DNA from: a virus
Taxonomy: Duplodnaviria > Heunggongvirae > Uroviricota > Caudoviricetes
DNA: 53,288 bases
IMG/VR virus record: IMGVR_UViG_3300025133_006513
Location: 1 to 53,288 of that record
Strand: one strand, 5' to 3'
The notes under the pieces are model-generated. The model was not told the DNA's origin. It saw nothing but the letters and a program-made list of their open reading frames with translations, and did no database searches. The stretch's first letter is position 1, and every line of letters begins with the position of its first letter. This document shows positions 9,858 to 48,475 of this stretch, one piece after another. Both the position numbers and the translations under genes were made by a program.

Positions 9858-9881
9858 AATCTTGTTCAGCTGAACAAAATC
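9858..9881. promoter_or_regulatory. Palindromic operator-like motif, copy 1
   Basis: AATCTTGTTCAGCTGAACAAAATC with a perfect 16-bp palindrome at 9862-9877; ends 1 nt before ATG 9883. Confidence 0.7.
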
Positions 9882-9882
9882 T

Positions 9883-10833
9883 ATGAGCATCCTGGTAAAC
9901 AGACCTGATAACAAAAGGCGTCCAGCAAACTGGCGGTGGATGCGAGCGTGCGAACTTGCAGACGGAGCACGCTTAGTCCGCGGTCGCGATGATGAGATTG
10001 TGCGTTTTGCCAGTAAATTTCGTCGTCTGATGGACCGATGTGAATCGGACGAGGATAAGCTGGAGGCGCTTGACGCACAACCCGCGATGTTCGAAGCATA
10101 CACGATCTACATGGGTGAAGATGATGCGAGCGAGGTTAAGTGGGAGCTGGAAGCACGACTGCTTGGCGGCGAACCTGTAGCCTCGATCGAAGCGAAGCTG
10201 GGAATCGACCCTGCTACGATCTTCACATATGAGCGTGTGTTCTTCGATGTACTGAGCCGACGACACTCTACGAGCTTAATGGTCCATGTGGTGATCGGAC
10301 GGTCTGTACAGACTGGCCTTGCGGAGCGCGAGTACGACTGCCTATGGAAGCTCTTTAGTTATTTCGCCGGTATCCCAGTGCTGGACGCCTATATCTGGAA
10401 GTTTAATGGCGTGAAACACGTTGAAAGTGCAGATGGGGTGCGGACGGCATTCCGAGAAATTGCAAAAGATACCATAATGTCAAAGGCAGCTGTCACTGCG
10501 TTGACGCTACCAGCTAACTGGCAGAACAATGAGTTGATCCTGGGCACATGGCAGCAAATATGTGGGCAGGAGCAGATGGCCGGGCAAGCTAGTGGTGGTA
10601 CTGAAGTGATGATGCAGAACGTCGCTGTTTTGGTTGAAGGGTTCCAGCCGCTACTGCACAAGCACATACACGGCGTGGATCCAACACCAGGCGGTATTAT
10701 CGATGAGATCGAAGACACAGGTGTACGGTTACGCTCTGACGAGCTAGCTGCTATTGCCACAGGCAACGATGTGTCTGGGTTTGAACACTTCATTACCGCT
10801 AAGTTCCCTGATTCCCAAGGTGAGGACAAATGA
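9883..10833 (+). CDS. Protein with a putative helix-turn-helix (terminase small subunit-like or regulator)
   Basis: 316 aa; EPVASIEAKLGIDPATIFTYERVF resembles an HTH; no Shine-Dalgarno upstream. Confidence 0.6.
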   Translation: MSILVNRPDNKRRPANWRWMRACELADGARLVRGRDDEIVRFASKFRRLMDRCESDEDKLEALDAQPAMFEAYTIYMGEDDASEVKWELEARLLGGEPVASIEAKLGIDPATIFTYERVFFDVLSRRHSTSLMVHVVIGRSVQTGLAEREYDCLWKLFSYFAGIPVLDAYIWKFNGVKHVESADGVRTAFREIAKDTIMSKAAVTALTLPANWQNNELILGTWQQICGQEQMAGQASGGTEVMMQNVAVLVEGFQPLLHKHIHGVDPTPGGIIDEIEDTGVRLRSDELAAIATGNDVSGFEHFITAKFPDSQGEDK

Positions 10834-12557
10834 GCAACATTCCGAGACTAAGCAAACAGAGCGAGGAGTTAATCAGCTCCGCACTGTCTGCTGTAACGGA
10901 GCGCACAAACAGCGGTGAGAGTCCAAACGATGCGATCGTAAAGGTTGCATCTGATAAGGGCATCACAGCTGGACACGTGCGACTCATGGTGCGAGCGTTT
11001 AACAACGGCCGCAGCCTGGGGCATATCCGTGAACACAGCGGACTCCATGAAAAAGCAGCATCGTTTTCCCTGGCAGATGCCGGTGAGATCCTTGAGCGTA
11101 TGTTCCCGTCTAAGATTCCAACGCAAGCTGAGAAGCAGGCGTCGGTCGCTGTCGGGTCAGACTACTCTCGATCGCCGCAAGCCTGGCTGAAGCGACGCGC
11201 AGGCGGTAAGGTTCGCACAGAGATGGTCAAGACAGCCGCGGCGGCAACGCCAAAGCAACGACCAGCCTCTGCGTACGAATACCGCGACGGGCGTAAGGCT
11301 CTCAGCAATCTGGCTGATATCCGCCGGGAGCATGATCGCGTGAAAGACGCCGCGATCAAGGCTGCTTACAAGGTGGCTGCTGACGTCAGCGAGCTTGGCG
11401 AATACTTCCGCCGGCCAGACGCATTGCCCGCTGCAGAGGTGGCTACGAACGCTGCCTACATGTACGGGGAACCTGCGAATAAGCTGGTCACCCACGCTGG
11501 TGCCATGCAGAAAAGTGCACGAGTAGCCAACAGGGCACGACCCGTTGACTGGAATGCTACACCTTACTCGTTGATCAAACAAGCACTCAGCAGCATGACT
11601 GACTTCACAATGAAGCGGGCATCGCTCGATACACATGCGAGTGGCTTGGCTGAAAAGAAAGCGGAGGAACTCCGCCCTTTTGGGTTAGGCCTCGAGAACG
11701 TGATTACCGGCTCGCTATGGGACAATCAATCGCAGATTGAGAAGCAGGCTGTTGGCCTGTTTGGTCTGGGGTTGGTTGGAGCGACCGGTGGTATGGCTCG
11801 AGGCATGGCACAAAAGATGTCACCGAAGACACGTGAAGATCTTGTTCAGGATCGATTGTTTGAGCTATCTAGCCCGCAGCATGAGGATAAGTTGCGGGCT
11901 ATCAGGGTGCGGACTATGCTGCACGAATTGATGAACTCGGATCCAATCATCAGCGGTTATGACCCACAGGAGGTGCTGGAAGCGTATAACCACCTTGCTG
12001 AGGTATCACCGCAGGTAATGCAGCAACGTATTACCGCGCAGGGTTTGCTGCGTAAATACCTGGAACAAGCGTCAGCACTCGACGCATTCGATGCAAACGA
12101 GATGTTGAGTGTAGAGAAGGGCATCACTGAGCGAAACTCACCGAAAGCCTTGTCGAAGACACACCAGACGGGTGCTGCCCGTGAGCTTGGTCCTGCAATC
12201 GGTACCGACACAGCTAAAGGGGCAGATGGCGACCCGCTGGCTAAGGCGTTAAGTGGTTACGAACGTATCACTGAAAAGCCAGCCGCGAACGGCAAGAGTC
12301 TCGCTGAGCAGTACGATAGGTTAGGATGGCGAGAAGCACTCTTTGGTGGTGAGAAGAAGGAACCAGAAGAGGACTCAGGCCCTGGGGTTGTAATTAGTGA
12401 CAAGCGCCCAGAGAAACCAGAAGCAACGGAAGAACCCGAAGCTACGCTACCGCCACCACCTGCACCAATGGATCTCGACGCCTGGTTCGCAGACTCGAAC
12501 GCAGACGCAAGACAACAAGAGAAGTCTGACCTTGAGCAGGGTATTTTCCCCACGTAG
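10830..12557 (+). CDS. Putative internal head/ejection protein with a Gly-rich hydrophobic segment
   Basis: 575 aa, about 14 K-x-A motifs, no Cys; VGLFGLGLVGATGG follows IEKQA; ATGA overlap with the upstream gene. Confidence 0.75.
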   Translation: MSNIPRLSKQSEELISSALSAVTERTNSGESPNDAIVKVASDKGITAGHVRLMVRAFNNGRSLGHIREHSGLHEKAASFSLADAGEILERMFPSKIPTQAEKQASVAVGSDYSRSPQAWLKRRAGGKVRTEMVKTAAAATPKQRPASAYEYRDGRKALSNLADIRREHDRVKDAAIKAAYKVAADVSELGEYFRRPDALPAAEVATNAAYMYGEPANKLVTHAGAMQKSARVANRARPVDWNATPYSLIKQALSSMTDFTMKRASLDTHASGLAEKKAEELRPFGLGLENVITGSLWDNQSQIEKQAVGLFGLGLVGATGGMARGMAQKMSPKTREDLVQDRLFELSSPQHEDKLRAIRVRTMLHELMNSDPIISGYDPQEVLEAYNHLAEVSPQVMQQRITAQGLLRKYLEQASALDAFDANEMLSVEKGITERNSPKALSKTHQTGAARELGPAIGTDTAKGADGDPLAKALSGYERITEKPAANGKSLAEQYDRLGWREALFGGEKKEPEEDSGPGVVISDKRPEKPEATEEPEATLPPPPAPMDLDAWFADSNADARQQEKSDLEQGIFPT

Positions 12558-12582
12558 TAAATCAGGTTTAATGGAGTCCGTA

Positions 12583-13854
12583 ATGGATTACGACAATCTC
12601 ACATACGCTGACGCCAAAGGCATGCTCAAGCAAGCTGACGGCGACTGGATGCAAGCTTTAGCCCAGGGGGCTAAAGACTTCGGCAATACGGCTGTGCAAG
12701 GCGCTAAAGACCTTGGCAATATTGCTGTGGAGTCTTTCAACAATCAAGATCACAGGATCCCCTGGCATGCAGGTCTGGGTGCTCTCACAGGGGCAGGACT
12801 TGGTGCCGTCTCATCGAGGTTCCAGCCTAAGAAGCGACGCAACACGCTGGGGCGTATGCTGACTGGCGGTATGCTCGGGTCACTTGGTGGGCTCGGACTC
12901 GCGGCTGCAACTGATACAACGATCGCCGACAACCAGGCGGCTGATACAAAAGCGAAGCAAGATAAGGTGGACATAGCTACGTTCGAAGATTTGAATAATC
13001 CAAGCCCGCCCCTGACGGTGGAGCAGATAGTTATGGACCTAGGTAACGCAGGGCGTGATGCGTACGTAGGGGTGCGCGATCACTCAGACGTCGAAGGTAA
13101 GCTGGGCGATATAACCACCCGCGGCGGGCGGTACCTAGCGAACCTATACACCGGCACGGGTACCGATGAATCTAACAAAGCGTGGGCGAAATCTACGCCT
13201 GTGTTTGGTCAGTTTGCTGACGATGAATGGGCGGGCCCCCTCGCTAACCCATCACCGTACCTAGGTGCGACTATGGGTGCTTATCTTGGCGGCTGGCGGC
13301 ACCGGCCCGGGCGGTTAGCGGCTTATATCCCACGCTTTGGGCAAGAAGCGTTCTACAAGGCGGTGCAGAAGGACTTACAAAAAGCCAATCGAGGGCAAGG
13401 CCACATGTCTGTTCCGGATGGCGCTACGGATGGGAAAGCGACACTGACAGCCCACCAACTGCGTGACGCTCGCACTGCCAAAGTTAACCATGAAAAAGCA
13501 CAGAGGAAACCTAACACAGACGGCACACTGACACCGGCTGGACAGCAGGAAAAAGCATTCCTAAGGCGGATATTCAAAGGCCCCGGCACTGCCGCCGCGT
13601 TGAAGGGGGACTACCCTGGAGCCACGCATACCGACCCTAACTGGGACGATGCGGTGCAGCGGCAACGACGAGTCAAAGCCACCAAGTGGAAACAGATACG
13701 CAAGGCGGGGCTGTACGGATTACTCGCACACTTAGGTATACGGTTCACCCAAGACATGTATGGGGACCGCCCTGACGCGGTGATGCGTGAAGCACTACGC
13801 GCCGCGGCGAGAACTAAAGCAATAGCGGACGCGGCTGCGGCCGCGGAGCAATAA
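12583..13854 (+). CDS. Putative ejection protein with glycine-zipper membrane segments (423 aa)
   Basis: Start re-called at ATG 12583 (GGAG at 12573-12576, after the upstream stop). MLKQA at aa 14-18; GLGALTGAGLGAV, GGMLGSLGGLGL, LGATMGAYLGG; no Cys. Confidence 0.75.
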   Translation: MDYDNLTYADAKGMLKQADGDWMQALAQGAKDFGNTAVQGAKDLGNIAVESFNNQDHRIPWHAGLGALTGAGLGAVSSRFQPKKRRNTLGRMLTGGMLGSLGGLGLAAATDTTIADNQAADTKAKQDKVDIATFEDLNNPSPPLTVEQIVMDLGNAGRDAYVGVRDHSDVEGKLGDITTRGGRYLANLYTGTGTDESNKAWAKSTPVFGQFADDEWAGPLANPSPYLGATMGAYLGGWRHRPGRLAAYIPRFGQEAFYKAVQKDLQKANRGQGHMSVPDGATDGKATLTAHQLRDARTAKVNHEKAQRKPNTDGTLTPAGQQEKAFLRRIFKGPGTAAALKGDYPGATHTDPNWDDAVQRQRRVKATKWKQIRKAGLYGLLAHLGIRFTQDMYGDRPDAVMREALRAAARTKAIADAAAAAEQ

Positions 13855-13889
13855 GGAAGGACCATTCCTTAATCGTAAGGTAATAACAC

Positions 13890-15389
13890 ATGGCACATAC
13901 AAAACTCATCACACCTGGATCGCAGAACTTCCACGAGCCTATCGCGCAACGTGTGAAGATCTCCGGCGGCAGGCTGCGCGGTCTTGATCTCCAAGACTTC
14001 GTTAAGCGTGCATCTGTGCAATTCATCGATAAGATTGCATCAGTCAAGCTGCAACCAGGCGAGGTACCTGTACACCTATTGGCTGTCGGTGCTGAGGAAT
14101 ACTACGGGTTCAATCGTAACGGTGATGGCTTCAAAGAGGCTGTATGCAAGGAGTACCATCCTACCTTCGAGAAGTTCGCCCGCTGGTACCGTGACCACCA
14201 GAACAAAGATGTGAGCAAGGGCCGCGGTATCATCAAGGCATCTGCCTACAATGGTGACATGCGACGTATCGAGCTGCTGGTAGCCCTCAACGGCACCAAA
14301 GAGGCTGCTGATCGCAATGGTGGCTTGGTTGCCGACGAAGAGCTGGAGAAGCTCGCCAAAGACGAGGATATCCCTGTATCGATGGCTTGCCGTGTCAGTC
14401 ATGACGTTTGCTCTGGCTGCGGGAACAAAGCTAAGAATCGATCGGAATACTGTGGTCCAGAGATGTGTAAGTACGGCGGTTGCCGCGATAACCTCGCGAA
14501 GACCTTCGACGATGGCACGACCCTGGGCGTCTACAACCCCGATCCCAGGTTCTTCGATATCAGTAAGGTCTTTCGCCCAGCAGACAGAATCGCCTATACT
14601 CTAGGTATGGCAAAGGCAGCAGCCGACTATCAAATGCTTCTCAAGGAAGCAGGTGACATGTACGGTGCCGATCGCAGCTCTGCTGCACTTGCCGACAAGA
14701 TGGGTGTGACACCGCCGCTCTGGTTGCTCTCTGACGGTCCTTGGGCTGACCCCAAGATTGTTGGACAACTCAAGATGGCGAACGCACTCATCAACCTTGA
14801 AGAGGAGCTTAACCAAGATACAACGCCTTCAAGAGCATCCCGGGCGTTTATGTCAGAGGTTCAACCTCTGCGAAACGATGCCCCGGATGTAAGACAGGGA
14901 CCATTCAAACTTGCCCACGTTGTGACAGCATTGGCTGCAGAACGATGCATGCTGCCGGTGGATACTTTCATCGCCATGCTGGCGGGCAACGAGAATGTGA
15001 AAACAGCAGCTGACGCCGTCACAGCACGACTCTCCGGAATCTACAATCGATTGGCGTCGGACCCTACGTTGGAGAACGATCTGCGGAATAACCCTTATTT
15101 ACCGGGTCCCCCAGCTCCTCGCCGCGTAAAACACTGGGTGTTGAAGCACGCCTCTGAGTGGTCGCTCGATAAGAGTAGCGTCGTTCAAAGGCTTCAACTC
15201 TCGACGTTACGACATCCGGCACCCCCTAAGGGTAACCGGGAAATGTTGAAGATTGCGATGGAGGATAGCAGCGAAGCATTGGCCAAACAGTACGCTCTGT
15301 ACCAGCTTGGTTTCCTCACTGCTAACGCTGAACAACCCGAAGCTACGTTCATGCAGGAAATGGCAATACGGTCTAATATCGCCATTTAA
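13890..15389 (+). CDS. Prohead maturation serine protease (HK97/assemblin-type) with a Cys-rich insertion
   Basis: WYRDHQN (candidate His), VSMACRVSHDVCSGCG (candidate Ser plus Zn ribbon), FFDISKVFRPAD; immediately precedes scaffold and capsid genes. Confidence 0.85.
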   Translation: MAHTKLITPGSQNFHEPIAQRVKISGGRLRGLDLQDFVKRASVQFIDKIASVKLQPGEVPVHLLAVGAEEYYGFNRNGDGFKEAVCKEYHPTFEKFARWYRDHQNKDVSKGRGIIKASAYNGDMRRIELLVALNGTKEAADRNGGLVADEELEKLAKDEDIPVSMACRVSHDVCSGCGNKAKNRSEYCGPEMCKYGGCRDNLAKTFDDGTTLGVYNPDPRFFDISKVFRPADRIAYTLGMAKAAADYQMLLKEAGDMYGADRSSAALADKMGVTPPLWLLSDGPWADPKIVGQLKMANALINLEEELNQDTTPSRASRAFMSEVQPLRNDAPDVRQGPFKLAHVVTALAAERCMLPVDTFIAMLAGNENVKTAADAVTARLSGIYNRLASDPTLENDLRNNPYLPGPPAPRRVKHWVLKHASEWSLDKSSVVQRLQLSTLRHPAPPKGNREMLKIAMEDSSEALAKQYALYQLGFLTANAEQPEATFMQEMAIRSNIAI

Positions 15390-15411
15390 CGAACCAGTAG
15401 CAGGTTATGCC

Positions 15412-15441
15412 TTGACGGCATGACTGCTTTTACGACAAAAT
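15412..15441 (+). promoter_or_regulatory. Possible promoter for the scaffold-capsid genes
   Basis: TTGACG-N18-CAAAAT in the intergenic region; GGAGG RBS before 15495. Confidence 0.35.
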
Positions 15442-15494
15442 AAACCACGACGGGTGCAAATTCAAAAGCCCGAAGTTCACCGGAGGATAACTTA

Positions 15495-16757: not shown

Positions 16758-16770
16758 TTTCACCCAAAAC

Positions 16771-16797
16771 CCTGTTCTCACTATCGAGTGAAATAGG
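16771..16797 (+). other. Intergenic RNA hairpin
   Basis: CCTGTT-C-TCACT-ATCG-AGTGA-AATAGG, 11 bp with one bulge and one G.U pair. Confidence 0.6.
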
Positions 16798-16825
16798 TTA
16801 ATCTGAGTGAACATGGAGGATAAAC

Positions 16826-17227
16826 ATGTCCACAAGTTCCGCACCACAGAAGGTATTAGCTCACCTTCGCATGTCTAACGAGATTGCCAAGCGTCACCAG
16901 AATCACCTGGAAAAGACAGCAGCAGTCTCCGCAGCCGCGCGACAGGCAGCTCCTGAAGCTATCGCAGCTTTGGTTGCTAACGAGCGTGTCTTCGAACATC
17001 AACAAGAAGCTGTCTTGGAGAAGATCGCGGGAAGCCACGTGGCTTGCCTCGAGTTGATCCGAGACTTGGCTAAGCATCGGAACGCCGCGGAGCTTGACTC
17101 CATCGGCTCTCCTGCTGGCCAGGAAAAGACAGCCTCAGCCGGTAGCTCCATCACTGGTGCTGCCGTAGCAGACTTCGATGAAACGGAGTCTGGAGACGCT
17201 TTCCGTCGAAAGTTGCTGGGTCAGTAA
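16826..17227 (+). CDS. Small head-associated protein (133 aa)
   Basis: GGAGG RBS; LEKTA, LEKIA and QEKTA motifs. Confidence 0.8.
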   Translation: MSTSSAPQKVLAHLRMSNEIAKRHQNHLEKTAAVSAAARQAAPEAIAALVANERVFEHQQEAVLEKIAGSHVACLELIRDLAKHRNAAELDSIGSPAGQEKTASAGSSITGAAVADFDETESGDAFRRKLLGQ

Positions 17228-17246
17228 CTTTTTGAAACTAAACTTC

Positions 17247-17265
17247 AATCGTGCTTAGCACGATT
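17247..17265 (+). other. Intergenic RNA hairpin
   Basis: AATCGTGC-TTA-GCACGATT, perfect 8-bp stem. Confidence 0.6.
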
Positions 17266-17294
17266 TACTCTGTCTTGACATTGGAGGTCACACG

Positions 17295-17882: not shown

Positions 17883-17924
17883 GAATAACGGTGAGCTGTT
17901 AGTTGTCGCATAAACTGTAATCAA

Positions 17925-17948
17925 TCATCCCCAGGGAATTGGGGATGA
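17925..17948 (+). other. Intergenic RNA hairpin upstream of the MCP RBS
   Basis: TCATCCCCA-GGGAAT-TGGGGATGA, perfect 9-bp stem; AAGGAGG RBS at 17958-17964. Confidence 0.65.
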
Positions 17949-17971
17949 ACATCAATCAAGGAGGTTGATCG

Positions 17972-18898: not shown

Positions 18899-18916
18899 GC
18901 CATAGTTACGGCCAGC

Positions 18917-18943
18917 GGCTTCCCTGGAAGGCCCAGGGAAGCC
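18917..18943 (+). terminator. Strong hairpin after the MCP (terminator or mRNA 3' stabiliser)
   Basis: GGCTTCCCTGG-AAGGC-CCAGGGAAGCC, perfect 11-bp stem; no clean U-tract. Confidence 0.6.
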
Positions 18944-18988
18944 CCGGCTGTTCTGTGATTCATTTTCCTGAAACTGGAATGTATATCC

Positions 18989-19375
18989 ATGACAACTCCA
19001 CTTCCTTCCAGAGAGCAAGCCGACCAGGCTTACTCATTCATGGTCGACAAGGTTCACGTTCCAGCCTTCTTCGAGAAGCTTGCTGCGAATGGACTGGAAC
19101 CACAGACAGAATCAGAAGCACAACAACTCTTGCAGTTGGGTGCTGTTTTGTCTCAGGCATACGCTGAGGGGCAAGTTAAGCAGGCTGAGGCGGGTAACCC
19201 CTTCCTCAACCATGTGATGTCCCGTGCGATTCCTACGCAACAGCCTAACGTCGGCTCGTTGGTTAAGCAAAGTGCTGACCACATGATTGGTAACAGCGCT
19301 ATGGCCCAAACGGCAGCATTGGTTTACGCCCATGCAGTCTCGGGCGGAGAGCTGGCAGAAACTGAACAATCCTAA
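18989..19375 (+). CDS. Small head-associated protein (128 aa)
   Basis: FEKLA and QVKQA motifs; no Cys. Confidence 0.8.
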   Translation: MTTPLPSREQADQAYSFMVDKVHVPAFFEKLAANGLEPQTESEAQQLLQLGAVLSQAYAEGQVKQAEAGNPFLNHVMSRAIPTQQPNVGSLVKQSADHMIGNSAMAQTAALVYAHAVSGGELAETEQS

Positions 19376-19382
19376 GCAGCTG

Positions 19383-19406
19383 AACTTTGTTTAGCTGAAC
19401 AAGATT
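19383..19406. promoter_or_regulatory. Palindromic operator-like motif, copy 2
   Basis: AACTTTGTTTAGCTGAACAAGATT, overlapping the TTGACA at 19405-19410. Confidence 0.65.
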
Positions 19407-19433
19407 GACACTGAAATGTAACCCTCATATAGG
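19405..19433 (+). promoter_or_regulatory. Sigma70-like promoter
   Basis: TTGACA-N17-TATAGG; -35 and spacing are perfect, -10 is imperfect. Confidence 0.5.
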
Positions 19434-19444: not shown

Positions 19445-19825
19445 ATGACACTTCTCGCAACACCTACGGCCACCGAGTGCCTTTACTCGACTGTCCGTAA
19501 TACTGCATTGACGGAGAAGTTCTTCGGCTTCTTGCCACCACACGGTCGTCGGTTGGCATGTGGCGAAGAAATCACCGTCTGGGGTGATATTCAGCACTGG
19601 CTCACGCGGTTCACACCAAATGACCGTGCCAAACGATCCCTCGAAATCGCCCTGGGTGGCGACGGCACGTACGCCGCTGTTTTGGCCTTGGTCAAGACTC
19701 CTTCGGTACACGTCTTCGACGACACCCTTGACGAAACACGTATCTTTACATTGGTCAACGGCTCGGCTGTTTACGCAGACCCGTGCTGGGGCTCTTATAG
19801 CTCTGAAGCACTGGCTTGTACATAA
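19445..19825 (+). CDS. Hypothetical protein (126 aa), probable virion protein
   Basis: ORF is flanked by a candidate promoter and a clear terminator. Confidence 0.8.
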   Translation: MTLLATPTATECLYSTVRNTALTEKFFGFLPPHGRRLACGEEITVWGDIQHWLTRFTPNDRAKRSLEIALGGDGTYAAVLALVKTPSVHVFDDTLDETRIFTLVNGSAVYADPCWGSYSSEALACT

Positions 19826-19853
19826 ACCGGTCCAACTGTGTATTGAACGTCTT

Positions 19854-19887
19854 AAGGCGGTGGCATTACGCCACCGCCTTTTCTTTT
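19854..19887 (+). terminator. Rho-independent terminator
   Basis: AAGGCGGTGGC-ATTAC-GCCACCGCCTT followed by TTCTTTT. Confidence 0.9.
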
Positions 19888-29074: not shown

Positions 29075-29443
29075 ATGGCCACTAACGTAATTAACGTCAA
29101 TGTTACAGGGTCGGTAGCCAACGGCGTCACTGAGTCATTTTCGCCAGGAGCCGTGAAGATCGATCAAGATGCGATTGGTATGCACGGTACGTTGGTATCC
29201 GTGGGCTTTGCCGCTGAGGAAGATATGCCCGTCGGTGACGTTACCGTCATGGGGTGGCTCTTCCTGCTTAACATCGACGAAACTAACTACGTCACCTGGG
29301 GTCCGAAGTCTGGAACCATGGTGGCCTGTGGTCGTCTTGAGCCTGGAGAGCCTGCGTGCCTCAGAGTCGAGCCTGGCGTAACAATCAGATGGCAGGCTGA
29401 CACCGCTGATGTGCAAGTGAAAATGCTACTGCTCGAAGACTAA
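29075..29443 (+). CDS. Small beta-sandwich virion protein (122 aa)
   Basis: GGAG RBS; GWLFLLNIDETNYV and LEPGEPA. Confidence 0.7.
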   Translation: MATNVINVNVTGSVANGVTESFSPGAVKIDQDAIGMHGTLVSVGFAAEEDMPVGDVTVMGWLFLLNIDETNYVTWGPKSGTMVACGRLEPGEPACLRVEPGVTIRWQADTADVQVKMLLLED

Positions 29444-29465
29444 TCTTGTTCATGAGATCAAAATC
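29442..29465. promoter_or_regulatory. Palindromic operator-like motif, copy 3
   Basis: AATCTTGTTCATGAGATCAAAATC directly abutting ATG 29466; no SD. Confidence 0.65.
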
Positions 29466-30272
29466 ATGCCATTAACTCGCAGCACTGAAGCGTTTGAACG
29501 CATCTATGTCGACTACGCTGTGCCCGGCTCGGCCACGGTGACATGGGAGGTACGTAAGAGCCTTCTGGATACCCAGCCCTGGACATTCCAGTTGCAGGTT
29601 AATCGGGACGGTGGTGGCGAGACATGGTCTAACGTAGGTTCTGCGGTAGTCAACGCCTACACAGCGATTGATGACACGCAGCGGCAGTATGGTAAATCGC
29701 TTCGTCTGGGCTACCGGGTCGTCCTGACGACGCCCGAGGACACGTACACGAGCAATGAGGCCCAGGTGCTTGGCAAGCTGTCCAAGCGTCAGTGGTTACA
29801 GGCACGTGCTATTCGCCGTAGAGCTACCCTAGAGGCACGCGGGCTCACCAGTTTGCCTGGGTATCTGATGAAGCGTAAGTTGTACGGGACGGCCTGTACG
29901 GTCTGCATAGACCCTATCACCAAGGGTATCCTCAACTCCGACTGTACGACATGCAACGGTACAGGCATGACAGACGGGTACTGGACCGCCGTCCAAGATA
30001 CCATGATCGATATTCAGCCCGAGGGTAACGACACCAAGCGTAGCCAGACGGGTACTGTCAATGATATCGGTTTGATGGCTAAGTTCGTCGCACCGCCTAT
30101 GATGCACAGGAACGACATCTGGATCGATGCGAATAGCGATCGTCGTTATGTCGTGCATGCTGTGAAGAGTCTCGCTGAAGTCAACCGTGTACCTGTCGTT
30201 ATCGCCGCCGAGCTACGGCTGGCTGAGTTCAATGACGTCATCTACACTATAGACCCCACTGAGGGCAGCTAA
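29466..30272 (+). CDS. Head closure/neck protein with a zinc-binding insertion
   Basis: CTVC...CTTCNGTG; C-terminal IWIDANSDRRYVVHAV beta-barrel typical of head-closure proteins; synteny. Confidence 0.7.
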   Translation: MPLTRSTEAFERIYVDYAVPGSATVTWEVRKSLLDTQPWTFQLQVNRDGGGETWSNVGSAVVNAYTAIDDTQRQYGKSLRLGYRVVLTTPEDTYTSNEAQVLGKLSKRQWLQARAIRRRATLEARGLTSLPGYLMKRKLYGTACTVCIDPITKGILNSDCTTCNGTGMTDGYWTAVQDTMIDIQPEGNDTKRSQTGTVNDIGLMAKFVAPPMMHRNDIWIDANSDRRYVVHAVKSLAEVNRVPVVIAAELRLAEFNDVIYTIDPTEGS

Positions 30273-36473: not shown

Positions 36474-37703
36474 GTGATGGCTAAATTTCCAGTCCCACCT
36501 CCAGTCGGTACCCCAGCTGCAGGCTTCTTGCCTTCAGCACCCGGTACAGTCATTGGGCGTATCCCTATGGACGACGTAAAGGACACAGAATCCCTGACTG
36601 AGAGTGAACGTGAGTTGGTCGAGCAAGCCGGGTGGAAACCTGGTGACTCTGTGCCCAACCTACGAGGCACACAGGTCGGGCAACAACTCCAAGCAGAAGT
36701 GGATAAGTTCCGCAACAGCGAGGAGGACTATGCAGGGATAGTGCCGATGGACCCAAGTACGCCTCCGCTTGATCCGCCTGAGCCTGTCGACGTCAGTGCG
36801 ATGAGTGCAGAAGAGCTCGCTGCGGCTGAGCAGACATTCGCGGAGATGGATGAACTCCAAGACCGCGTGAACGCTGCACGAAAGCAACGCAAAGATAAGA
36901 AACTAGCACAGGAGCCGTCATTGCCACCCAGTGTGATGGCCACCCCTGGAGCAGCCCAGGCGATTGCTGCTGCCGAGCACGCGGCGGCTGTAGAGGCACA
37001 ACGCAACCCGAGCGTGATGAAACTGATCAATGACCTGCCAGAGTCCACCGGGGATATGCCCGTGCGTGAGGCTACGACACCGTTCAAGATCAAGGCAGAG
37101 GAAACACAGCCACAACCACAGCCTGAAATTAGTTCACCTGAACAAGATTCACCTGATGTCGGTGCAGACCTGACCGGGCATACAACATACTGCCCGCGAT
37201 GCAACTTCGATCTGAATAAGACGGTACCTGAGCCCACAGAGCTGGATATCGCTGGCTACCTGGCTTGCGTATTAGATGGTGGGCGGTTCCGCAAGGAAGT
37301 CTCGCTGTTTGGTGGGCGTATCACCGTGGTGTTCCGCACACTAACCCCCCTAGAGGTGGATGCGGCTATCTCGCAAGCTGACGCTGAAATGGCGGAAGAC
37401 AAGATCACAAATATCCTGCAATACACGCGTATTGTCGAGGGATACAAGCTGGTCGCCGGTATCGAGATGGTTTCACGACCAAATACGGGTCCGATTACCT
37501 TCCCTGAATTAGGTAAAATCGCAGAAGGTGATGTCCCGCCAATCGTGGAGGTATACAACTACTTCAACAACGAGGTGTTCACCACCGACAGTCTTCGCAG
37601 TATCGTTGGCGTGGAGTGGGTGACCTTTAAGAACTTGGTGCAGTTTTTGGAAGCTAAAGCGAGTGACCCTAATTTTTTCGGAAGCGGAGATTATCAGGTC
37701 TAA
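36474..37703 (+). CDS. Tail assembly chaperone (gpG-like)
   Basis: AAGGAG RBS; upstream of the tape measure; ends in a slippery T TTT TTC with the next ORF in the -1 frame. Confidence 0.75.
   Translation: MMAKFPVPPPVGTPAAGFLPSAPGTVIGRIPMDDVKDTESLTESERELVEQAGWKPGDSVPNLRGTQVGQQLQAEVDKFRNSEEDYAGIVPMDPSTPPLDPPEPVDVSAMSAEELAAAEQTFAEMDELQDRVNAARKQRKDKKLAQEPSLPPSVMATPGAAQAIAAAEHAAAVEAQRNPSVMKLINDLPESTGDMPVREATTPFKIKAEETQPQPQPEISSPEQDSPDVGADLTGHTTYCPRCNFDLNKTVPEPTELDIAGYLACVLDGGRFRKEVSLFGGRITVVFRTLTPLEVDAAISQADAEMAEDKITNILQYTRIVEGYKLVAGIEMVSRPNTGPITFPELGKIAEGDVPPIVEVYNYFNNEVFTTDSLRSIVGVEWVTFKNLVQFLEAKASDPNFFGSGDYQV
37673..37679 (+). other. Programmed -1 ribosomal frameshift slippery heptamer
   Basis: T TTT TTC in X XXY YYZ phase; the -1 frame is open (RKRRLSGL) into ATG 37703. 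Confidence 0.8.
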
Positions 37704-40076: not shown

Positions 40077-40090
40077 TAGGAGCCAATGGA

Positions 40091-40555: not shown

Positions 40556-41013
40556 TCAACCACGTGCGAACGCTGCTGCAGAATAGATCACATAAACACC
40601 CTAGCGACGAATTTGTACCACCTGATTTCACACCGATGGCGTGCCCGCCGGTTGTGCAGAAGATCAAGCGAATCCTCTGGGGTCGCACTCCTGTCAGTCA
40701 GTTACGTATCTGGCAGGTTATGCAGTTACTACATGCGTCAGAGTTAGAAGAGCACGTGCTTGCGACAGACGGCCGTGTAACTTACCTGCCGTTTGATGAT
40801 AAGTACTTCGGGAAGGTGGACATAGATCTGACAGTCTTCATACCTGAGTTACAGACGACACTGACACCTGATGACGACATCGCACTGTTCGACGACCTGT
40901 CGATCGAACCCAATCGCACATTCTACGAGTTGTGGAAGAAACACGATCAAGTTCCATATAAACTAGGCGGGCTTATGCTGGCCGTCGTAGCTGCCACAGA
41001 AAGGGCACGTTAA
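40552..41013 (+). CDS. Hypothetical baseplate-region protein (153 aa)
   Basis: ATGA coupling; lies within the baseplate block. Confidence 0.75.
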   Translation: MINHVRTLLQNRSHKHPSDEFVPPDFTPMACPPVVQKIKRILWGRTPVSQLRIWQVMQLLHASELEEHVLATDGRVTYLPFDDKYFGKVDIDLTVFIPELQTTLTPDDDIALFDDLSIEPNRTFYELWKKHDQVPYKLGGLMLAVVAATERAR

Positions 41014-42677: not shown

Positions 42678-42689
42678 CAGGAGAAACCC

Positions 42690-43430
42690 ATGCCAAAGAA
42701 TATGCTAGAGCCTGACTACCAGTTGCCATATGACAATTGGGTAGCTGATCCATCCCCTACGAACACTGGGCAGCTGATTAAAGCTGTCAAACCGGTGCTG
42801 AGTTCAGCGGTGCGAGCGTACGGGGGTACGTCTGCCAGGAGCACGAACATTAAGTCACAGGCCAAGCGTATGGCTGCCGACGCCTTCAGTTCGTATGATC
42901 CAGCACGGGGCACATTGAAATCACACCTCATGTCACGCCTTCAGCGGTTACGCCGAGTGGCAGCCCAGCAGCGGCAGGTCATCCGTGTCCCAGAGCAGGT
43001 AGCTCTCGATCAGATGCGATCGGACGCTGCGACACGTGAATTGGAAGAGAGCCTGGGTTATCCTCCATCAGACCAGCAACTCGCGGATTACACGAATTTG
43101 TCGCTTAAACGCCTCGCATACATCAGAGGGAGTGAGCGCCCACTCGCGGAGAGTACGATTTCGCGTGGTGGCGAGGAGGGCCTTGGTGGCTACGATCCGC
43201 GGGTTCGATCGCTAGCAAAACCCGCAGACGCGTGGGAGGAGCTTATCTACGATGACATCGATGAGACTAACCAGTTCATTATGGAGCGTGTGCTCGGAAT
43301 GCACGGACATCAGCCAACCAAGCCCAGTCAGGTGGCTGTGATGTTGAAAATTAGCCCTGCCGCCGTAAGCCATCGCATGGCCCAGATTCAAGCAAAACTG
43401 GACAAGCGAGAAGACTTGGGGATGATCTAA
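42690..43430 (+). CDS. Sigma70-family sigma factor (group 3, FliA/WhiG-like)
   Basis: Region 2 LIKAVKPVLSSAVRAY...YDPARG; IRVP; region 3 LEESLGYPPSDQQLADYTNLS; region 4 HTH TKPSQVAVMLKISPAAVSHR; GGAG RBS. Confidence 0.9.
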   Translation: MPKNMLEPDYQLPYDNWVADPSPTNTGQLIKAVKPVLSSAVRAYGGTSARSTNIKSQAKRMAADAFSSYDPARGTLKSHLMSRLQRLRRVAAQQRQVIRVPEQVALDQMRSDAATRELEESLGYPPSDQQLADYTNLSLKRLAYIRGSERPLAESTISRGGEEGLGGYDPRVRSLAKPADAWEELIYDDIDETNQFIMERVLGMHGHQPTKPSQVAVMLKISPAAVSHRMAQIQAKLDKREDLGMI

Positions 43431-43858
43431 TGCCACTAGCTGTTGACGCACAATTCACCATCTTAATGACGTCGATGTGCACGTTCTCGGACTCGATCGC
43501 GGATTATTATAAGGATGCCGGCACACAGCGGGTGTGGATGGTACCGACCGCTGTTGGCTGGTCCCTCGACTCCGTCGACCCGTCCGATATGAGCGACCCT
43601 TTCGATCGTATCGGACCTAATGGGCTGTACACGGCAGAGTATGATGGTACCGGTAGTGACGAGGTTCGAGGCATCATGGGATCACACATACAAATTGGTT
43701 ACATGGGCATGATGGAGCGATCGTTTCGCGAGCGGCACAAAACACCTACCCGCGCCATGCTGCATGTCGCTGGCCGACGCATGGCTCACGGCGACACGGT
43801 AGATGGCGTACATAAGGCAGGTGTTGAAAACTACGTTACGGATTTATTCAACGCATGA
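43430..43858 (+). CDS. Hypothetical protein (142 aa)
   Basis: TAATG coupling to the sigma gene. Confidence 0.75.
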   Translation: MPLAVDAQFTILMTSMCTFSDSIADYYKDAGTQRVWMVPTAVGWSLDSVDPSDMSDPFDRIGPNGLYTAEYDGTGSDEVRGIMGSHIQIGYMGMMERSFRERHKTPTRAMLHVAGRRMAHGDTVDGVHKAGVENYVTDLFNA

Positions 43859-44277
43859 GCACCGATATTACAGCATGGCAACTCGTTGATGACTTCATTA
43901 TCCCGCAGTATGATGATGGACAGCTTGCTGAGGGTACTTTCGATGTCCTGCAGCGGGTGCTGATGATCTTGTTGTCCGAGACTGACAGTGCCAGGTATGC
44001 GTTTGATCGCGACGCTCAGCGGGCCTGTGCGTTTATGTCTGCTTGGCGGCAGGGTGACATCAGTAACGAAGCAGATGTGTTACGTATATTCTCACTCTGC
44101 CAGAGCCAAGTCAAAATGGCTATGGACAGCCAAGAGACAGATGAGGACCCACCAGAGAGGCAGTTCAAATCGCTGGAGATACTGCGGATTGTTGTGCAGC
44201 CAGGGACTGTGCAGCTGCGTTGCAAGTTAGAGACACAAGCAGACTCACTGCTATTCACGTTACCGATACCGATCTAG
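43855..44277 (+). CDS. Baseplate wedge gp25/GpW-like protein
   Basis: 140 aa before baseplate J; VLQRVLMILLSE...EDPPERQFKSLEIL...VQLRCKL. Confidence 0.7.
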   Translation: MSTDITAWQLVDDFIIPQYDDGQLAEGTFDVLQRVLMILLSETDSARYAFDRDAQRACAFMSAWRQGDISNEADVLRIFSLCQSQVKMAMDSQETDEDPPERQFKSLEILRIVVQPGTVQLRCKLETQADSLLFTLPIPI

Positions 44278-44285
44278 GAGATACG

Positions 44286-45443
44286 ATGTACTGGCCGGGA
44301 CTTGATGAGCTAGATGCAGAGCATGTGGAGTTTGCACACGCGATAATCCTGCAGATGATCGAAGAGAAGTGTCCTTCTTTGAACGCTGACCGCGGTGTCG
44401 TCGGGTCTTTGGTCACGGAGCTGCACGCCATCTTCCAAGGCTGCAGCATGCAAGCGATCGACAAGCTCCAGCACTCACTATGTGCCCGCGATGTTGCGGT
44501 AGACCCCAGCAGTGCACTCCCCGCAGCGGTCGACGCCTTGGCGTCTAACTTCCGGGTACACCGTAAGATTTCCAGAAAAGCCACAGGAACCATCACTGTC
44601 GTGCTTAATCGCGCGTCTGGTGATAGTTTTGGTACGAATACCAAGTTTCGCGCGAACGGGCAGTTCTTTTACGTGACACAGAAGGTTATCGTTAAGCCAC
44701 AGGTCCGCGGACCGCATGATGTCGCGGCGGTACAGCTTGAAGCAGGCACATACAGCGTACAAATCCCAGTAATTGCCAATGAAGTGCACCCAGCCGCCAT
44801 GCTGCATCGTTTTGACAAGCTGGTGCCCTTGATACGCCCGCCGGGCTTCGTCGACGCGTATGCGACAGCTGATTTTGTCGGCGGTGTGACTCCCCAATCA
44901 AATAAGCAACTCGTTGACCAGTTTAGAGTTAGCCTCGCTACCCCTGGATTTTCCAACGTAGATTGCATTAAGGCACTTGTACATCAGAGTGGCGTCGACG
45001 TTTCGGATATTGCGGTTATCGGAGCTCGTGATGACGAGATGACCCGCGACCATAACGCTGATGGCGTGTCTGTCGGTGGTTGCCTGGACATTTACATCCG
45101 GATCGACGGGCCTTGGGCTCGCCACATCGCTGACATCCAGGAATATCTGGATAATCCAGATGTGAGACAGCCCGGGCTAAGTGTGAAAGTCATGGCAGCC
45201 ACTCCCGTGCAGGTCGACGTACAGGTGAAGGCCAAAGGCTTCGCTGACCATGACGCCATTCACGAAAACCTAGCTAAATATGTGAATGGATTACCCATTG
45301 GCACGCCACCCACGCAGTTCCAACTGGTCCGGGCGGTGCAAGACATAGATGGTGTTGAAGATGTGTCATTCGAGATGGCCAACGCCTTCGATAAGACGTG
45401 TGCAGCCTACTTAAACCGTGATATTCTGATCAAATTGCAGTGA
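44286..45443 (+). CDS. Baseplate J-like wedge protein
   Basis: Start re-called at ATG 44286 (TAGGAG RBS); KATGTITV, ATADFVGG, VIGARDDEMTRD, GGCLDIYIR, VMAATPVQV. Confidence 0.8.
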   Translation: MYWPGLDELDAEHVEFAHAIILQMIEEKCPSLNADRGVVGSLVTELHAIFQGCSMQAIDKLQHSLCARDVAVDPSSALPAAVDALASNFRVHRKISRKATGTITVVLNRASGDSFGTNTKFRANGQFFYVTQKVIVKPQVRGPHDVAAVQLEAGTYSVQIPVIANEVHPAAMLHRFDKLVPLIRPPGFVDAYATADFVGGVTPQSNKQLVDQFRVSLATPGFSNVDCIKALVHQSGVDVSDIAVIGARDDEMTRDHNADGVSVGGCLDIYIRIDGPWARHIADIQEYLDNPDVRQPGLSVKVMAATPVQVDVQVKAKGFADHDAIHENLAKYVNGLPIGTPPTQFQLVRAVQDIDGVEDVSFEMANAFDKTCAAYLNRDILIKLQ

Positions 45444-46387
45444 CCATGTACAAATACCCTGAACTCACCCGCGATGACCCTGCGCACGTCCTTGGCTTGC
45501 TCGGATCACTCTGGACCCTCTATTATGGGGGGCGCGCCCCCCTTCTTGCGCTCGTGCAGGCTAATTTAGAGTTAATTAAGCAAAGTAAGCAGAACCTGGA
45601 CGAAGCAGCCGCGTGCGCGAGCCGCTTTACAGTCCCCCTTGCACATACCGAGGTTTGGACCCTATTTCAGCTCAAAGGCTCTGAATGCACCGAGAAATCG
45701 TTCCCAGCCCCGCCTGGACTGCTAAGTATGCCTGTGATGATGAATCGGATGACCGACGCCACGCTGATGCTGCAGGAGGGGATCGATTACCGCTTAAACG
45801 CTAATCGTCTAGAGTTCGCTAAAGACCCCTTTGAAGACGACAGAATCCCACAAATGGACGATACAGTGTACCTCTGGGGCTTCCGAGGCCTGTTTAATCG
45901 CAAATACGTCGATCGATCGATCAGTCACGCCATGAACGTCGTTATTTCGGATGCAACGCAGAAGAGATACCGCGATACCACCAACGCTATCACAAATTGT
46001 GCTGTCGGTGGCACCACAATCACTAATTTGACCGCTGTTTTGGCCACATACCTGGATATTCCGCTGGCTGACGGTGAGGAGGTCATAGAGGGCGTCGGAG
46101 AGGACCGCAGGGGGCGTTTCCTGATGACATCGCGGCACATAAGGCGGATGACGCCTGAAACCGTAGTAAGCCTCAAAACAGGCTCTCAGCCGCCCGCAGG
46201 GACGCCATTATTCGATTGTTTCCGTATTTTGGACGATTCTGAGCTCCCAACTACTAATTCGTCACAAATTAGTAGTAAATTAGTAGTTGAGCTCGCATCG
46301 CCACTGGTTACAGACGAATTGCAAGCAATACTGCACCGCGTGGTGCCCCCGCAGATAGGATTGGCGTTCGTATCGCCTGAGGAATAA
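45440..46387 (+). CDS. Baseplate wedge protein (gpI/gp7-like)
   Basis: Follows baseplate J; LGLLGSLW N-terminus and LHRVVPPQ C-terminus. Confidence 0.65.
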   Translation: MTMYKYPELTRDDPAHVLGLLGSLWTLYYGGRAPLLALVQANLELIKQSKQNLDEAAACASRFTVPLAHTEVWTLFQLKGSECTEKSFPAPPGLLSMPVMMNRMTDATLMLQEGIDYRLNANRLEFAKDPFEDDRIPQMDDTVYLWGFRGLFNRKYVDRSISHAMNVVISDATQKRYRDTTNAITNCAVGGTTITNLTAVLATYLDIPLADGEEVIEGVGEDRRGRFLMTSRHIRRMTPETVVSLKTGSQPPAGTPLFDCFRILDDSELPTTNSSQISSKLVVELASPLVTDELQAILHRVVPPQIGLAFVSPEE

Positions 46388-48390
46388 TGGTCAACCTAGA
46401 GTCCTGCTCACACTCAGAATTTTCCTACGACTGGAAAAGCCCCACCCCTGGCGATTCCAGCCTTAGTTTCCCCAATGGCGAGTGCTCATTCTGGAAATGG
46501 TGCCCATGTTGGCCGTACGAGTGGGATATATGCTCACGATCGTCCTCATCCTGTCCGATGGAGGACGTGACGAACGAAGGCTGCGACAGGGACGGTGCGT
46601 GGTACAACGTGTGCGGCGACGCGTGTCTCGGACCTCCGGGCTACGCAGGTACATTCTTTGGCGAAATGTCGATGATATGCCGCTGCCCGAACACGCAGCA
46701 TAACTCTAGCTCGTCATTGGTTCCCGATGACGGCGGAAGTTACTCTTGCCCTGTAGATTTCCCTGTGGGTGCCCCCTTTCCGTGGGATATGCACCGCTAT
46801 CCCACTGTAAACCAAGCAGAACAGGTGCCGCAGTACATTTTTCCGCCAGAACCGTGGGGCGAAGGCTCAAAAGGCTACTGGACGTGGTGTGCGAACGACG
46901 ATAATGACGAGGCGACGTATGTCGGTATGGGGCGATGCTTCCGCGCGTACGACCCCAATCGCGAAGAACCTTGCGACATCATCGACACGTATTGCCGTGA
47001 CGGTATGCTTGGCGGGAAACCAAAATACAGCAGCAGTAACGGTTGCTGGTGCGTGTGGTGGAACGGGTATTACTGGGTACTGTCTGCAGTGTGTAACGTA
47101 GCGTCGGGGGATGTCTGGATACTGGCACCAGAGAACGAAGACTGCCCGCTGGGCGAGTACACGCCACTCTCTGGTGACGCAGAAGGCAATATCCTGCTAA
47201 CACCCGACTGCGAAGATACAGATAAGTCGTTGACAGACTACGGCACAGGTAAATGGGTGTTCCGCGGCGGGCAGGAGCAACTAGGCCCGCCAAGTGATTA
47301 TGGTGTGGATGGCCGCTTTTACGGTGAGACAATCGCAGTAGGTTACTGCTGTGGCTCGTCCAGCTCACTGAAGGATGACTCAGAGTCATTTTCCTCGTCC
47401 AGTTTAAGCACATCCTGCTCGATGCCTGCTTATCCTTGGTTTGGCTGGGACGATAACCTTGAAGTATACCAAGCACCTGATAACGGTATTGTGGGCCTAG
47501 GTACTGGTGGCGAGGGTTGCGAGATACCTTACGGGTGTGCTGCGTGGTTGTGGTGCCAATGTAGCGACGGCCGGGCAAATAACTGTGCCACACACAACAC
47601 GGTGCCCTACACAGACCCAGGACGGTGGAAGCTCAACGAAGATTACGACATCATCGTCGAACCACAACAGCTGGCACACGGCGCCCCGCCAATACTCGGA
47701 CGATTCTTTGGTGAGATCTTGTGGTACTGCCCGTGCGATCACAGCGAGTCATCGCCATCTGTACCAATTAACTCGTCATCTTGTGGTGCTTTTGGCGGCT
47801 GTTCGATCGCCGATACCTTCACTGACGAGGACGATACCAGCATCCTCGACCATACGATGGACTCAGGGCACTCCTGGACAGCCGTCGAAGACCAAGCTGC
47901 GTTTATCGTAGGTAGCCGACTAGATATTGAATCAGGTGCTTTCCCGTCGCTGCATGATCACGGGTACTGGGTAGATTGTGGCAGCACTGTGCATGAGGTT
48001 TCAGGTGAGTTCGTGCTGAATGGCTGGCTGGTTGGGTTGATCGTGCGAGGCACAGGCACTAGGCCTGATTTTATAGCTGTGCACACAGAAGTAACCCAAG
48101 ATGAAATTTGTGTCTCTTCTGTGTCAGATGGCGGTGGTTACCTTGTTTACACCAATATCTACACCTACTCAATGTCGCTGAGTGCTGAACAATCGCTTAG
48201 CCTTCGTTGCCGCGTATGTAAGCATAGAATCAAGGTCTGGGCGGATGGCGACCTGGTGATTAATGAACCCACTACGCCGGCCATGTTCCCAGATACGGGC
48301 ACATGGGTGGGTATAGCCCACGATTGGAGCTCTGGTATTAATTGCTACGCCGACAACTTCTTCTGCAAAATCGGGTGTGAGGATTACTAG
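46387..48390 (+). CDS. Cys/Trp/Ser-rich tail fibre or receptor-binding protein with a C-terminal lectin-like beta-sandwich
   Basis: 667 aa with about 40 Cys; three GxF(F/Y)GE...CxC/CC...SSS modules; ConA/LamG-like C-terminus (GLIVRG...RIKVWADG...GTWVGI); located after the wedge genes. Confidence 0.65.
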   Translation: MVNLESCSHSEFSYDWKSPTPGDSSLSFPNGECSFWKWCPCWPYEWDICSRSSSSCPMEDVTNEGCDRDGAWYNVCGDACLGPPGYAGTFFGEMSMICRCPNTQHNSSSSLVPDDGGSYSCPVDFPVGAPFPWDMHRYPTVNQAEQVPQYIFPPEPWGEGSKGYWTWCANDDNDEATYVGMGRCFRAYDPNREEPCDIIDTYCRDGMLGGKPKYSSSNGCWCVWWNGYYWVLSAVCNVASGDVWILAPENEDCPLGEYTPLSGDAEGNILLTPDCEDTDKSLTDYGTGKWVFRGGQEQLGPPSDYGVDGRFYGETIAVGYCCGSSSSLKDDSESFSSSSLSTSCSMPAYPWFGWDDNLEVYQAPDNGIVGLGTGGEGCEIPYGCAAWLWCQCSDGRANNCATHNTVPYTDPGRWKLNEDYDIIVEPQQLAHGAPPILGRFFGEILWYCPCDHSESSPSVPINSSSCGAFGGCSIADTFTDEDDTSILDHTMDSGHSWTAVEDQAAFIVGSRLDIESGAFPSLHDHGYWVDCGSTVHEVSGEFVLNGWLVGLIVRGTGTRPDFIAVHTEVTQDEICVSSVSDGGGYLVYTNIYTYSMSLSAEQSLSLRCRVCKHRIKVWADGDLVINEPTTPAMFPDTGTWVGIAHDWSSGINCYADNFFCKIGCEDY

Positions 48391-48451
48391 CACCGGACCC
48401 TAGCACCCAGTAGACTGAGCTCTACGCTCATAGCCTTGCTTATCATGATTG

Positions 48452-48475
48452 GATTTTGTTCATGGGATCAAATTC
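48452..48475. promoter_or_regulatory. Palindromic operator-like motif, copy 4
   Basis: GATTTTGTTCATGGGATCAAATTC overlapping the glycosyltransferase start. Confidence 0.55.

Follow-up and report, generated by a model that had tools for sequence, protein, structure and literature searches.

The DNA analysed here (the window, 53,288 nt) forms the beginning of a 153-kb viral contig from marine metagenomes (IMG/VR record IMGVR_UViG_3300025133_006513, hereafter G000), which is about 71% complete, has a G+C content of 53.6% and carries almost every gene on the same strand. It opens within the genes for the phage's own RNA polymerase: a fused β/β′-N subunit truncated by the contig start (3–3908, plus strand) and the β′-C subunit (5011–6894, plus strand) make up the single multisubunit polymerase set of the genome. 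Further along lies the gene for a sigma70-family-like factor (42690–43430, plus strand), one of the core genes of the phage family. Our subject is a 24-bp palindromic element that recurs along this gene array. A first-pass annotation, made from the letters alone, had pointed out four copies, and all four were recovered at exactly the positions it gave, with 13 of the 24 columns invariant among them as it had stated. A search of the window for the core TTGTTYANNNGAWCAA with at most one mismatch returned 11 strand-matches, compared with 0.20 expected from 100 dinucleotide shuffles (standard deviation 0.47, maximum 2).

Each copy sits at or next to the beginning of a gene or promoter, in the contexts already described for it. 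Copy 1 (9858–9881, core TTGTTCAGCTGAACAA) fills the 27-nt gap between a stop codon at 9855 and the ATG at 9883, ending 1 nt before that ATG, which has no Shine-Dalgarno (SD) sequence. Copy 2 (19383–19406, TTGTTTAGCTGAACAA) lies 11 nt past the stop at 19375 and overlaps the −35 element of a sigma70-like promoter (19405–19433, plus strand), in which TTGACA (19405–19410) is followed after 17 nt by TATAGG (19428–19433). This promoter would drive a 126-aa gene (19445–19825), and a strong terminator follows the gene at 19854–19880. Copy 3 (29442–29465, TTGTTCATGAGATCAA) lies between the stop at 29443 and an ATG at 29466 that follows it immediately, again with no SD sequence, 1.7 kb upstream of the tail sheath gene. 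Copy 4 (48452–48475, TTGTTCATGGGATCAA) has an ATG at its centre, and this ATG, at 48462, opens a 665-aa glycosyltransferase gene (GT9 + GT2).

The remaining matches in the window include some that fall within genes. One exact match to a looser core (TTGTTCCTAGGAACAA, 949–964) lies in the RNA polymerase gene, where it codes for the conserved peptide F-V-P-R-N-K, and relatives have no site at this place; judging from these sequences, it is probably inert. The same may hold for a one-mismatch match inside a 409-aa gene (37130–37145), and the other weak intragenic matches, near 40652 and 50428, are probably inert or due to chance.

The element as a genome-wide array

Over the whole G000 contig, the 16-mer gave 14 exact and about 19 near matches, compared with a single match per strand for a reversed control pattern. 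Good copies of the full 24-bp element number about 15 in the incomplete G000 and 25–30 in complete relatives. We aligned 52 sites from G000 and two relatives, and found that the information profile is steeply raised from position −3 to +20 and flat beyond, so that the element constitutes a self-contained 24-mer, with the consensus A-T-T-TTGWTCA-NN-TGAWCAA-A-A-T. T1, T2, T5, A12, A15 and A16 are invariant in this alignment, and the centres of the two half-site cores are 10 bp apart, that is, one helical turn. The palindrome has no asymmetry beyond that imposed by stop and start codons, and its variant halves and central bases are seen either way round.

Most copies occupy the space that separates one gene's stop codon from the start codon of the following gene, and the TAA stop often merges with the left flank. 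On the other side, either a start codon stands 1–7 nt past the right flank or an SD sequence stands 2–8 nt past it, the commonest class having its start codon 1 nt beyond the element. The fraction of sites outside gene interiors was 10/14, 19/25, 8/9 and 25/31 in four genomes, although such sequence accounts for only about 10% of the DNA; P values range from 6e-7 to 7e-21. A scan of the genome and its relatives, which the first-pass annotation had proposed, thus finds sites enriched outside gene interiors and kept at orthologous junctions. Some sites lie directly between transfer RNA (tRNA) genes, and several have genuine intrinsic terminators immediately upstream. One relative (G001, below) has a cluster of six sites within 8 kb, among small genes with their own terminators. 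Accessory genes are not enriched downstream of the sites.

Divergence between related phages and the kind of molecule recognised

To follow the element through the phage family, we used a polymerase profile, which found 80 related loci in IMG/VR, and took six further genomes whole. Near-identical relatives of G000 were absent both from a phage collection (megablast) and from IMG/VR (single-protein search). The closest relative, G001 (79% identity in the RNA polymerase; 226 kb, complete), has 25 exact sites of the same geometry, mostly with TTGATC. G002 and G004 (72% polymerase identity) carry TTATTC-N4-GAATAA, and the complete G003 (61%) carries TTGTCTG-N4-CAGACAA. More distant lineages have palindromes unrelated to the G000 element: in G006 (41%) there are 31 copies, 30 of them identical, of TTTTGACTCCGGAGTCAAAA, a perfect 20-bp palindrome, and G007–G009 (49%) have 18–26 copies of AAAWTCYRGAWTTT.

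Despite these differences in sequence, the places of the sites are shared. Relatives' versions of the element were found at the same junctions for 5–7 of the 10 genes tested, and the genes after copies 1 and 4 and after five further G000 sites are preceded by the own-lineage palindrome in G001 and G002 and partly in G003. The copy 1 junction bears the lineage's own version in all three of these relatives. For copy 4, the glycosyltransferase ortholog of G001 likewise uses the ATG in the middle of its palindrome, and in G002 the orthologous gene begins 1 nt beyond the palindrome. The site of copy 3 is matched in G001 only, and at the junction of copy 2 the palindrome is absent from G001 and G002, which retain the TATAGG element.

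Between lineages, both halves of the palindrome change in concert. Since the place and the kind of site are conserved while its sequence shifts in both halves, the cognate reader appears to evolve with the phage. We conclude that the array is very probably recognised by a lineage-specific, and hence phage-encoded, dimeric protein that binds double-stranded DNA. The first-pass annotation had listed a site for a dimeric phage regulator among its options, and this option is supported by the two-fold symmetry without hairpin covariation and by the concerted change of half-sites at orthologous junctions.

A second option, a translational operator acting at the RNA level, is suggested by the position of the element exactly at translation starts. 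Its central four bases, which are free to vary, read AGGA or CAGG, an SD-like sequence at the correct spacing, in 9 of the 21 sites with a start codon within 7 nt and in none of the 30 others (P=1e-4). In G006, GGAG stands in the fixed centre of the palindrome, and start codons adjoin the palindrome. With SD sequences and a start codon inside the element, mRNA must run through it, and in some copies the SD-like AGGA would be in the loop of a hairpin. Such a hairpin in the polycistronic mRNA could be a translational operator, a processing site or a stabiliser of the flanking cistrons. We consider this very improbable, because the pairing it calls for is at chance level. At the variable symmetric pairs (−3/20, −1/18, 0/17, 4/13, 7/10 and 8/9) Watson-Crick pairing never rose above the expectation for independent positions: 30 of 54 sites were paired at 4/13 compared with 27 expected, 21 compared with 28 at 0/17, where C0 never occurs with G17, and 20 compared with 27 at 7/10. 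Deviations from the consensus tend to fall in one half only, without compensatory change site by site, and 15 of the 25 G001 sites have an A-A or T-T clash in the middle of the would-be stem. The four window copies form only weak RNA structures, at −2 to −4.9 kcal/mol with z between 0 and −2; the fold of copy 3 does not use the palindromic register, and no Rfam family matched the element. Sites between tRNA genes and right after terminators also speak against a role in translation. The sole covariation is between genomes and affects every site together, which argues that a symmetric dimer reads two half-sites on duplex DNA and can accept a weak half when the other one is consensus. An intrinsic terminator was ruled out as well: the stem is AT-rich, a T-run precedes it and an A-run follows it, the reverse of the terminator order, and real terminators lie upstream of several sites.

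The first-pass annotation had also raised host LexA, which would couple phage genes to DNA damage and hint at a host from the PVC superphylum. The LexA box reported for Verrucomicrobia is TGTTC-N4-GAACA. A 2016 study by Erill et al., listed among the references of PMC8565304, bears a title on this subject. The fully symmetric G000 copies (those at 9862, 91053 and 151548, among others) do contain this core. About half of the G000 sites, however, have GATCA in one half, and most G001 half-sites read GATCA too, which gives TGATC; G002 has GAATA (TATTC), and G003 and G006–G009 have other sequences and another geometry at equivalent places. The element also differs from the box in that its flanks and seventh base are conserved too, while position 4 is freely A or T. 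Furthermore, the 15–30 sites stand at cistron junctions, and not at the promoters of a lysis-lysogeny switch, in phages that encode a polymerase and a sigma factor for themselves, and they span structural, replication and tRNA regions; neither this location nor this copy number fits an SOS regulon. Since scans of four genomes found no LexA-like gene, S24 peptidase or integrase either, we see next to no chance that these are SOS boxes. An FNR/CRP-type box was rejected: the FNR consensus is spaced TTGAT-N4-ATCAA, and G001 has TTGAT-N6-ATCAA.

Copies that are short, palindromic, intergenic and numerous could in principle be a dispersed repeat of the REP or MITE kind, selfish or neutral and with no phage function. 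We give this very little credence: the element is merely 24 bp long, we noticed no transposase-like partner gene, the copies are evenly spaced, and orthologous junctions are occupied even though the sequence of the element differs in concert between lineages. The exact 16-mer does occur in 23 unrelated viral contigs, but only once in each, which is the chance level.

We next looked for the protein that might read the element. The sigma70-family-like factor is a conserved candidate, and its G001 ortholog scores above the Pfam Sigma70_r3 cut-off. Its C-terminal helix-turn-helix (HTH), which resembles region 4.2, is identical in G000, G001 and G002 in spite of their differing palindromes, so the sigma factor is not the reader. 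A separate sigma70 gene of G002 has no homologue in the other genomes. Pfam and PHROGs searches with about 45 proteins encoded beside the sites, in the site cluster or in the core yielded nothing convincing. The 316-aa protein encoded at 9883, just after copy 1, is a fast-evolving core gene product, and a site precedes its gene in four genomes. By eye it has an HTH-like stretch at residues ~97–120, within a helical N-terminal part that is predicted with confidence. Its AlphaFold2 (AF2) model has a mean pLDDT of 54 and is confident only for residues ~12–125, and its Atlas model is of low confidence; the protein has no Pfam, PHROG or PDB match, and Foldseek found nothing below E=0.4 in the PDB. 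The suggestion of the first-pass annotation that it is an HTH binder of the palindrome could not be confirmed, and it is a candidate only.

Gating, promoters or anchors

We tentatively favour, at somewhat less than even confidence, the reading that the palindromes together form an array of operators through which a global regulator encoded by the phage would gate transcription at gene junctions and at some promoters, by analogy with the stoperators of mycobacteriophages. Here we infer that a protein binds the sites, that it is of phage origin and that it acts on transcription. The 24-bp, two-fold symmetric duplex site would offer two half-sites (A-T-T-TTGWTCA) to a phage-encoded homodimer. Its copies would act along the long same-strand gene arrays over which they are evenly spread, nearly all of them in stop-start gaps. 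At the few sites directly upstream of, or over, the −35 element of a sigma-type promoter, the bound dimer would be a classical operator-bound repressor; at junction sites, it would block or pause RNA polymerase reading through from upstream. The genome would in this way be cut into segments of about 10 kb, to be released once the protein is absent or displaced. The operator/stoperator network of mycobacteriophage L5 would share this logic, the differences being the symmetry of the present site and the polymerase encoded by the phage itself. Sites that could serve as classical operators are copy 2, G000 151548 and G001 71240 and 72869, all of which lie just upstream of predicted sigma-type −10 elements; at the last three the order is terminator, TAGCYATCAG box, palindrome, sigma-type promoter. 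This ten-base box comes after the T-run of intrinsic terminators in three genomes (G000 143832 and 151535; G001; G003), sometimes just before a palindrome.

Dispersed intergenic repressor sites that stop elongation have a published precedent (PMC9283540), and Cluster A mycobacteriophages (L5 gp71, Bxb1 and the TipsytheTRex repressor) have an operator/stoperator network (PMC9283540, PMC6550527). Like those stoperators, the present sites comprise more than 20 copies of one short sequence genome-wide, in short intergenic gaps on the same strand and with a few at predicted promoters, and their sequence diverges between related phages, there together with the cognate protein. In contrast, L5-type stoperators are asymmetric 13-mers bound by a monomer in one orientation only, and they belong to temperate phages that use the host polymerase and a known immunity repressor, whereas here we have a 24-bp palindrome, even spacing, a phage polymerase, no lysogeny genes found and a reader that is only predicted. 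The KorA/KorB operators of RK2 and the C1 operators of P1 are another comparison, with ten to twenty dispersed, mostly palindromic sites at which one dimeric protein controls many units. They too are dispersed palindromes for a dimeric protein on a large replicon, but they lie at or near promoters and are not squeezed between stop and start codons. KorB belongs to the ParB family, and no ParB_N match was present in four genomes here. The KorA operator shares with copy 2 only a central AGCT, which is not conserved among the copies; identity with this operator was rejected on that ground.

Several observations weigh against gating by a repressor. Even spacing of the sites is not predicted by a plain operator model. 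About 60% of the sites in the G009 lineage lie within called genes, which fits a role independent of junctions, and none of the 18 divergent and 18 convergent gaps contains a site. The phage looks virulent, so that an immunity-type repressor would have no obvious role. Family scans for HTH_3, S24, RHH_1, integrase and ParB_N were negative or sub-threshold in four genomes, the models of the 316-aa protein show no interpretable fold, and our searches produced no other candidate binder. Finally, other promoter-like motifs are scarce, which leaves room for the palindromes as the main promoters.

This last point leads to a different proposal, in which the phage RNA polymerase would use the palindrome as its promoter or entry site. 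A dimeric specificity factor would mediate recognition, and transcription units of about 5–10 kb would start there. The element is the commonest non-SD intergenic motif in G001 and G002, several copies come directly after intrinsic terminators, and even spacing would keep each gene near a start site. Starts 1 nt past the element, the commonest class, are compatible with leaderless mRNAs. Promoters of T7-like phage polymerases, which are 23-mers, are likewise lineage-specific, with near-identical copies in short same-strand gaps. The promoters of AR9 (early AAATATATATTAT-(6N)-G, late AACA-(6N)-TA/G) and phiKZ (late TATG) share with the element lineage specificity, near-identity, high conservation, AT-richness, multiple copies and a place in short same-strand gaps (PMC5312081). 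These known promoters of multisubunit phage polymerases, however, are asymmetric with a fixed start point (PMC5312081), whereas the element is a palindrome, and in G006 a perfect one, that gives no directional information and has no conserved flanking position. Start codons are found anywhere from −10 to +42 nt relative to it, and transcripts beginning at its 3′ edge would lack the embedded SD sequences and start codons. None of the divergent gaps, in which transcription of the plus strand has to begin anew, contains it, and its changes are not accompanied by changes in the conserved sigma-like factor. We therefore think a promoter role unlikely.

More specific promoter readings of the letters were tried and rejected. 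As a sigma70 promoter, the palindrome fails because its half-sites are 4 bp apart and are not hexamers separated by 16–18 bp. A −10 element set 17 bp after TTGWTC would land in the downstream open reading frame (ORF) at tight junctions, and in an extended −10 reading (TG..CAAAAT) the start point would land within the ORF. An AR9-type reading of the right half as AACA-(6N)-TW gave inconsistent spacing to the start codons.

There is also a separate class of sigma70-like promoters, composed of AAAAACGACA, about 9 nt, CGGCAT and TATAAG/TATAAA, and conserved in G000–G003. It has 4–6 copies per genome, and none was found in the window's 50-kb structural block, a scarcity that counts in favour of the palindrome as promoter. 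A sigma70 consensus scan of 9.5–29.5 kb gave 12 matches compared with 12.5 expected. Copies of the class were noted in the window at 51314–51345 and 51905–51945, and elsewhere in G000 at 91419 and 128151. Several of them have a hairpin and a T-run within about 35 nt downstream, an arrangement that would suit very short transcripts or attenuated leaders, and the one near 51931 heads a stretch of about 900 nt without ORFs (51883–52785).

The spacing of the sites bears on a third proposal. We compared the coefficient of variation (CV) of the intervals between sites, whose mean is 4–14 kb across genomes, with that of random junctions or positions, which is about 0.9. Sites were more even in 6 of 7 genomes: G000 (CV 0.41, P=0.0004), G001 (0.59, P=0.004), G002 (0.47, P=0.0095), G006 (0.68, P=0.015), G008 (0.58, P=0.003) and G009 (0.63, P=0.010); in G007 (0.75) the difference was not significant. 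Evenness of this kind would be expected of anchors for a phage-encoded dimeric protein of the nucleoid type, with a role in looping, compaction, attachment to membrane or capsid, replication or recombination, and sites would then be intergenic only because a fixed 24-mer fits poorly in coding sequence. The symmetric, orientation-independent sites, their lack of a fixed relation to start codons, their presence between tRNA genes and the mostly intragenic sites of the G009 lineage are all in keeping with such a role. There are cellular precedents with tens of dispersed palindromic sites (matS/MatP, NBS/Noc and SBS/SlmA), and these, like parS/ParB, resemble the present array in being read by dimers, independent of orientation, along a replicon. 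Sites of chromosome-organising proteins are 13–16-bp palindromes confined to chromosome domains and known from cells, and in contrast to the present sites they are not tied to cistron junctions. An architectural role also does not account for the strong tendency of the sites to keep to particular orthologous junctions even between widely diverged phages, for the dense cluster among small genes with their own promoters and terminators, or for the sites over −35 regions, and neither a ParB_N domain nor a type IIA topoisomerase subunit was found (the latter by a GyrA/ParC family scan). We rate this role, too, as unlikely, though it deserves to be kept in view. Identity with parS was rejected, as the half-site here is one base shorter than that of parS and ParB_N matches are absent from four genomes. 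A strong gyrase or topoisomerase II site was rejected because the phage encodes no topoisomerase and a host enzyme cannot explain lineage specificity.

It is possible, though doubtful, that the array is a system not described before, used by a whole family of jumbo phages from marine and other aquatic habitats that carry a fused β-β′ RNA polymerase of the virion type, with 20–30 lineage-specific palindromes, one per 4–10 kb, and a fast-evolving dimeric reader, serving either as polymerase entry sites or as a genome ruler or anchor. Symmetric polymerase entry sites would, if real, be a new promoter architecture, and with either these or a segmenting, anchoring ruler, large phages would have a new way of organising their genomes that goes beyond a set of repressor operators. 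A 24-bp signal that recurs every ~10 kb, conserved in position and varying in sequence with lineage, offers a direct experimental handle: the 24-mer could serve as bait for the regulator, and its natural variants (G to A at position 3, A or T at position 4, a different spacer) are ready controls. The answer would tell protein roadblocks from a new kind of promoter and from architectural anchors in large phages that bear their own polymerase. For annotation, the motif pins down true gene starts, including those without SD sequences and one inside the motif.

Phage family context and further observations

The closest cultured relatives by polymerase sequence are Salmonella phage Arash and Vibrio phage D69, at just 31% identity; in Arash, polymerase and sigma are present in the virion (PMC10585845). 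Metagenomic relatives with the fused polymerase are many and measure 200–227 kb, and public data contain more than 1,900 protein clusters of it, so the uncultivated family is very large. Scans of four genomes, of which two are complete, detected neither an integrase nor an S24 peptidase or HTH_3 protein, although divergent proteins may be missed in this way.

Some further features were noted in passing. The 126-aa gene after copy 2 (65–79% identity among G000–G003) forms a unit of its own, with promoter and terminator, amid the head genes (19445–19880). In G001, a palindrome stands immediately upstream of the gene for a 224-aa protein (L136:8858–9532, minus strand). Helix-hairpin-helix domains and the C-terminal domain of the RNA polymerase alpha subunit match this protein below threshold (E ~5e-4), and it may serve the phage polymerase as a DNA-binding accessory. 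In G003, about 5–10 kb into the reversed record, some 20 long repeats end in …AGCAAAGCACACTTTACTACCAAGACCAACAGAA-TATAAT, with a perfect TATAAT, resembling either strong promoters set in an array or a repeat region. The complete G001 has 39 tRNA genes in its last 35 kb, while the G000 contig has just tRNA-Glu and tRNA-Gln, at 69658–69806. Lastly, G000 146,060–147,700 contains about 15 hairpin repeats with a period of about 90 bp and compensatory changes in their stems.

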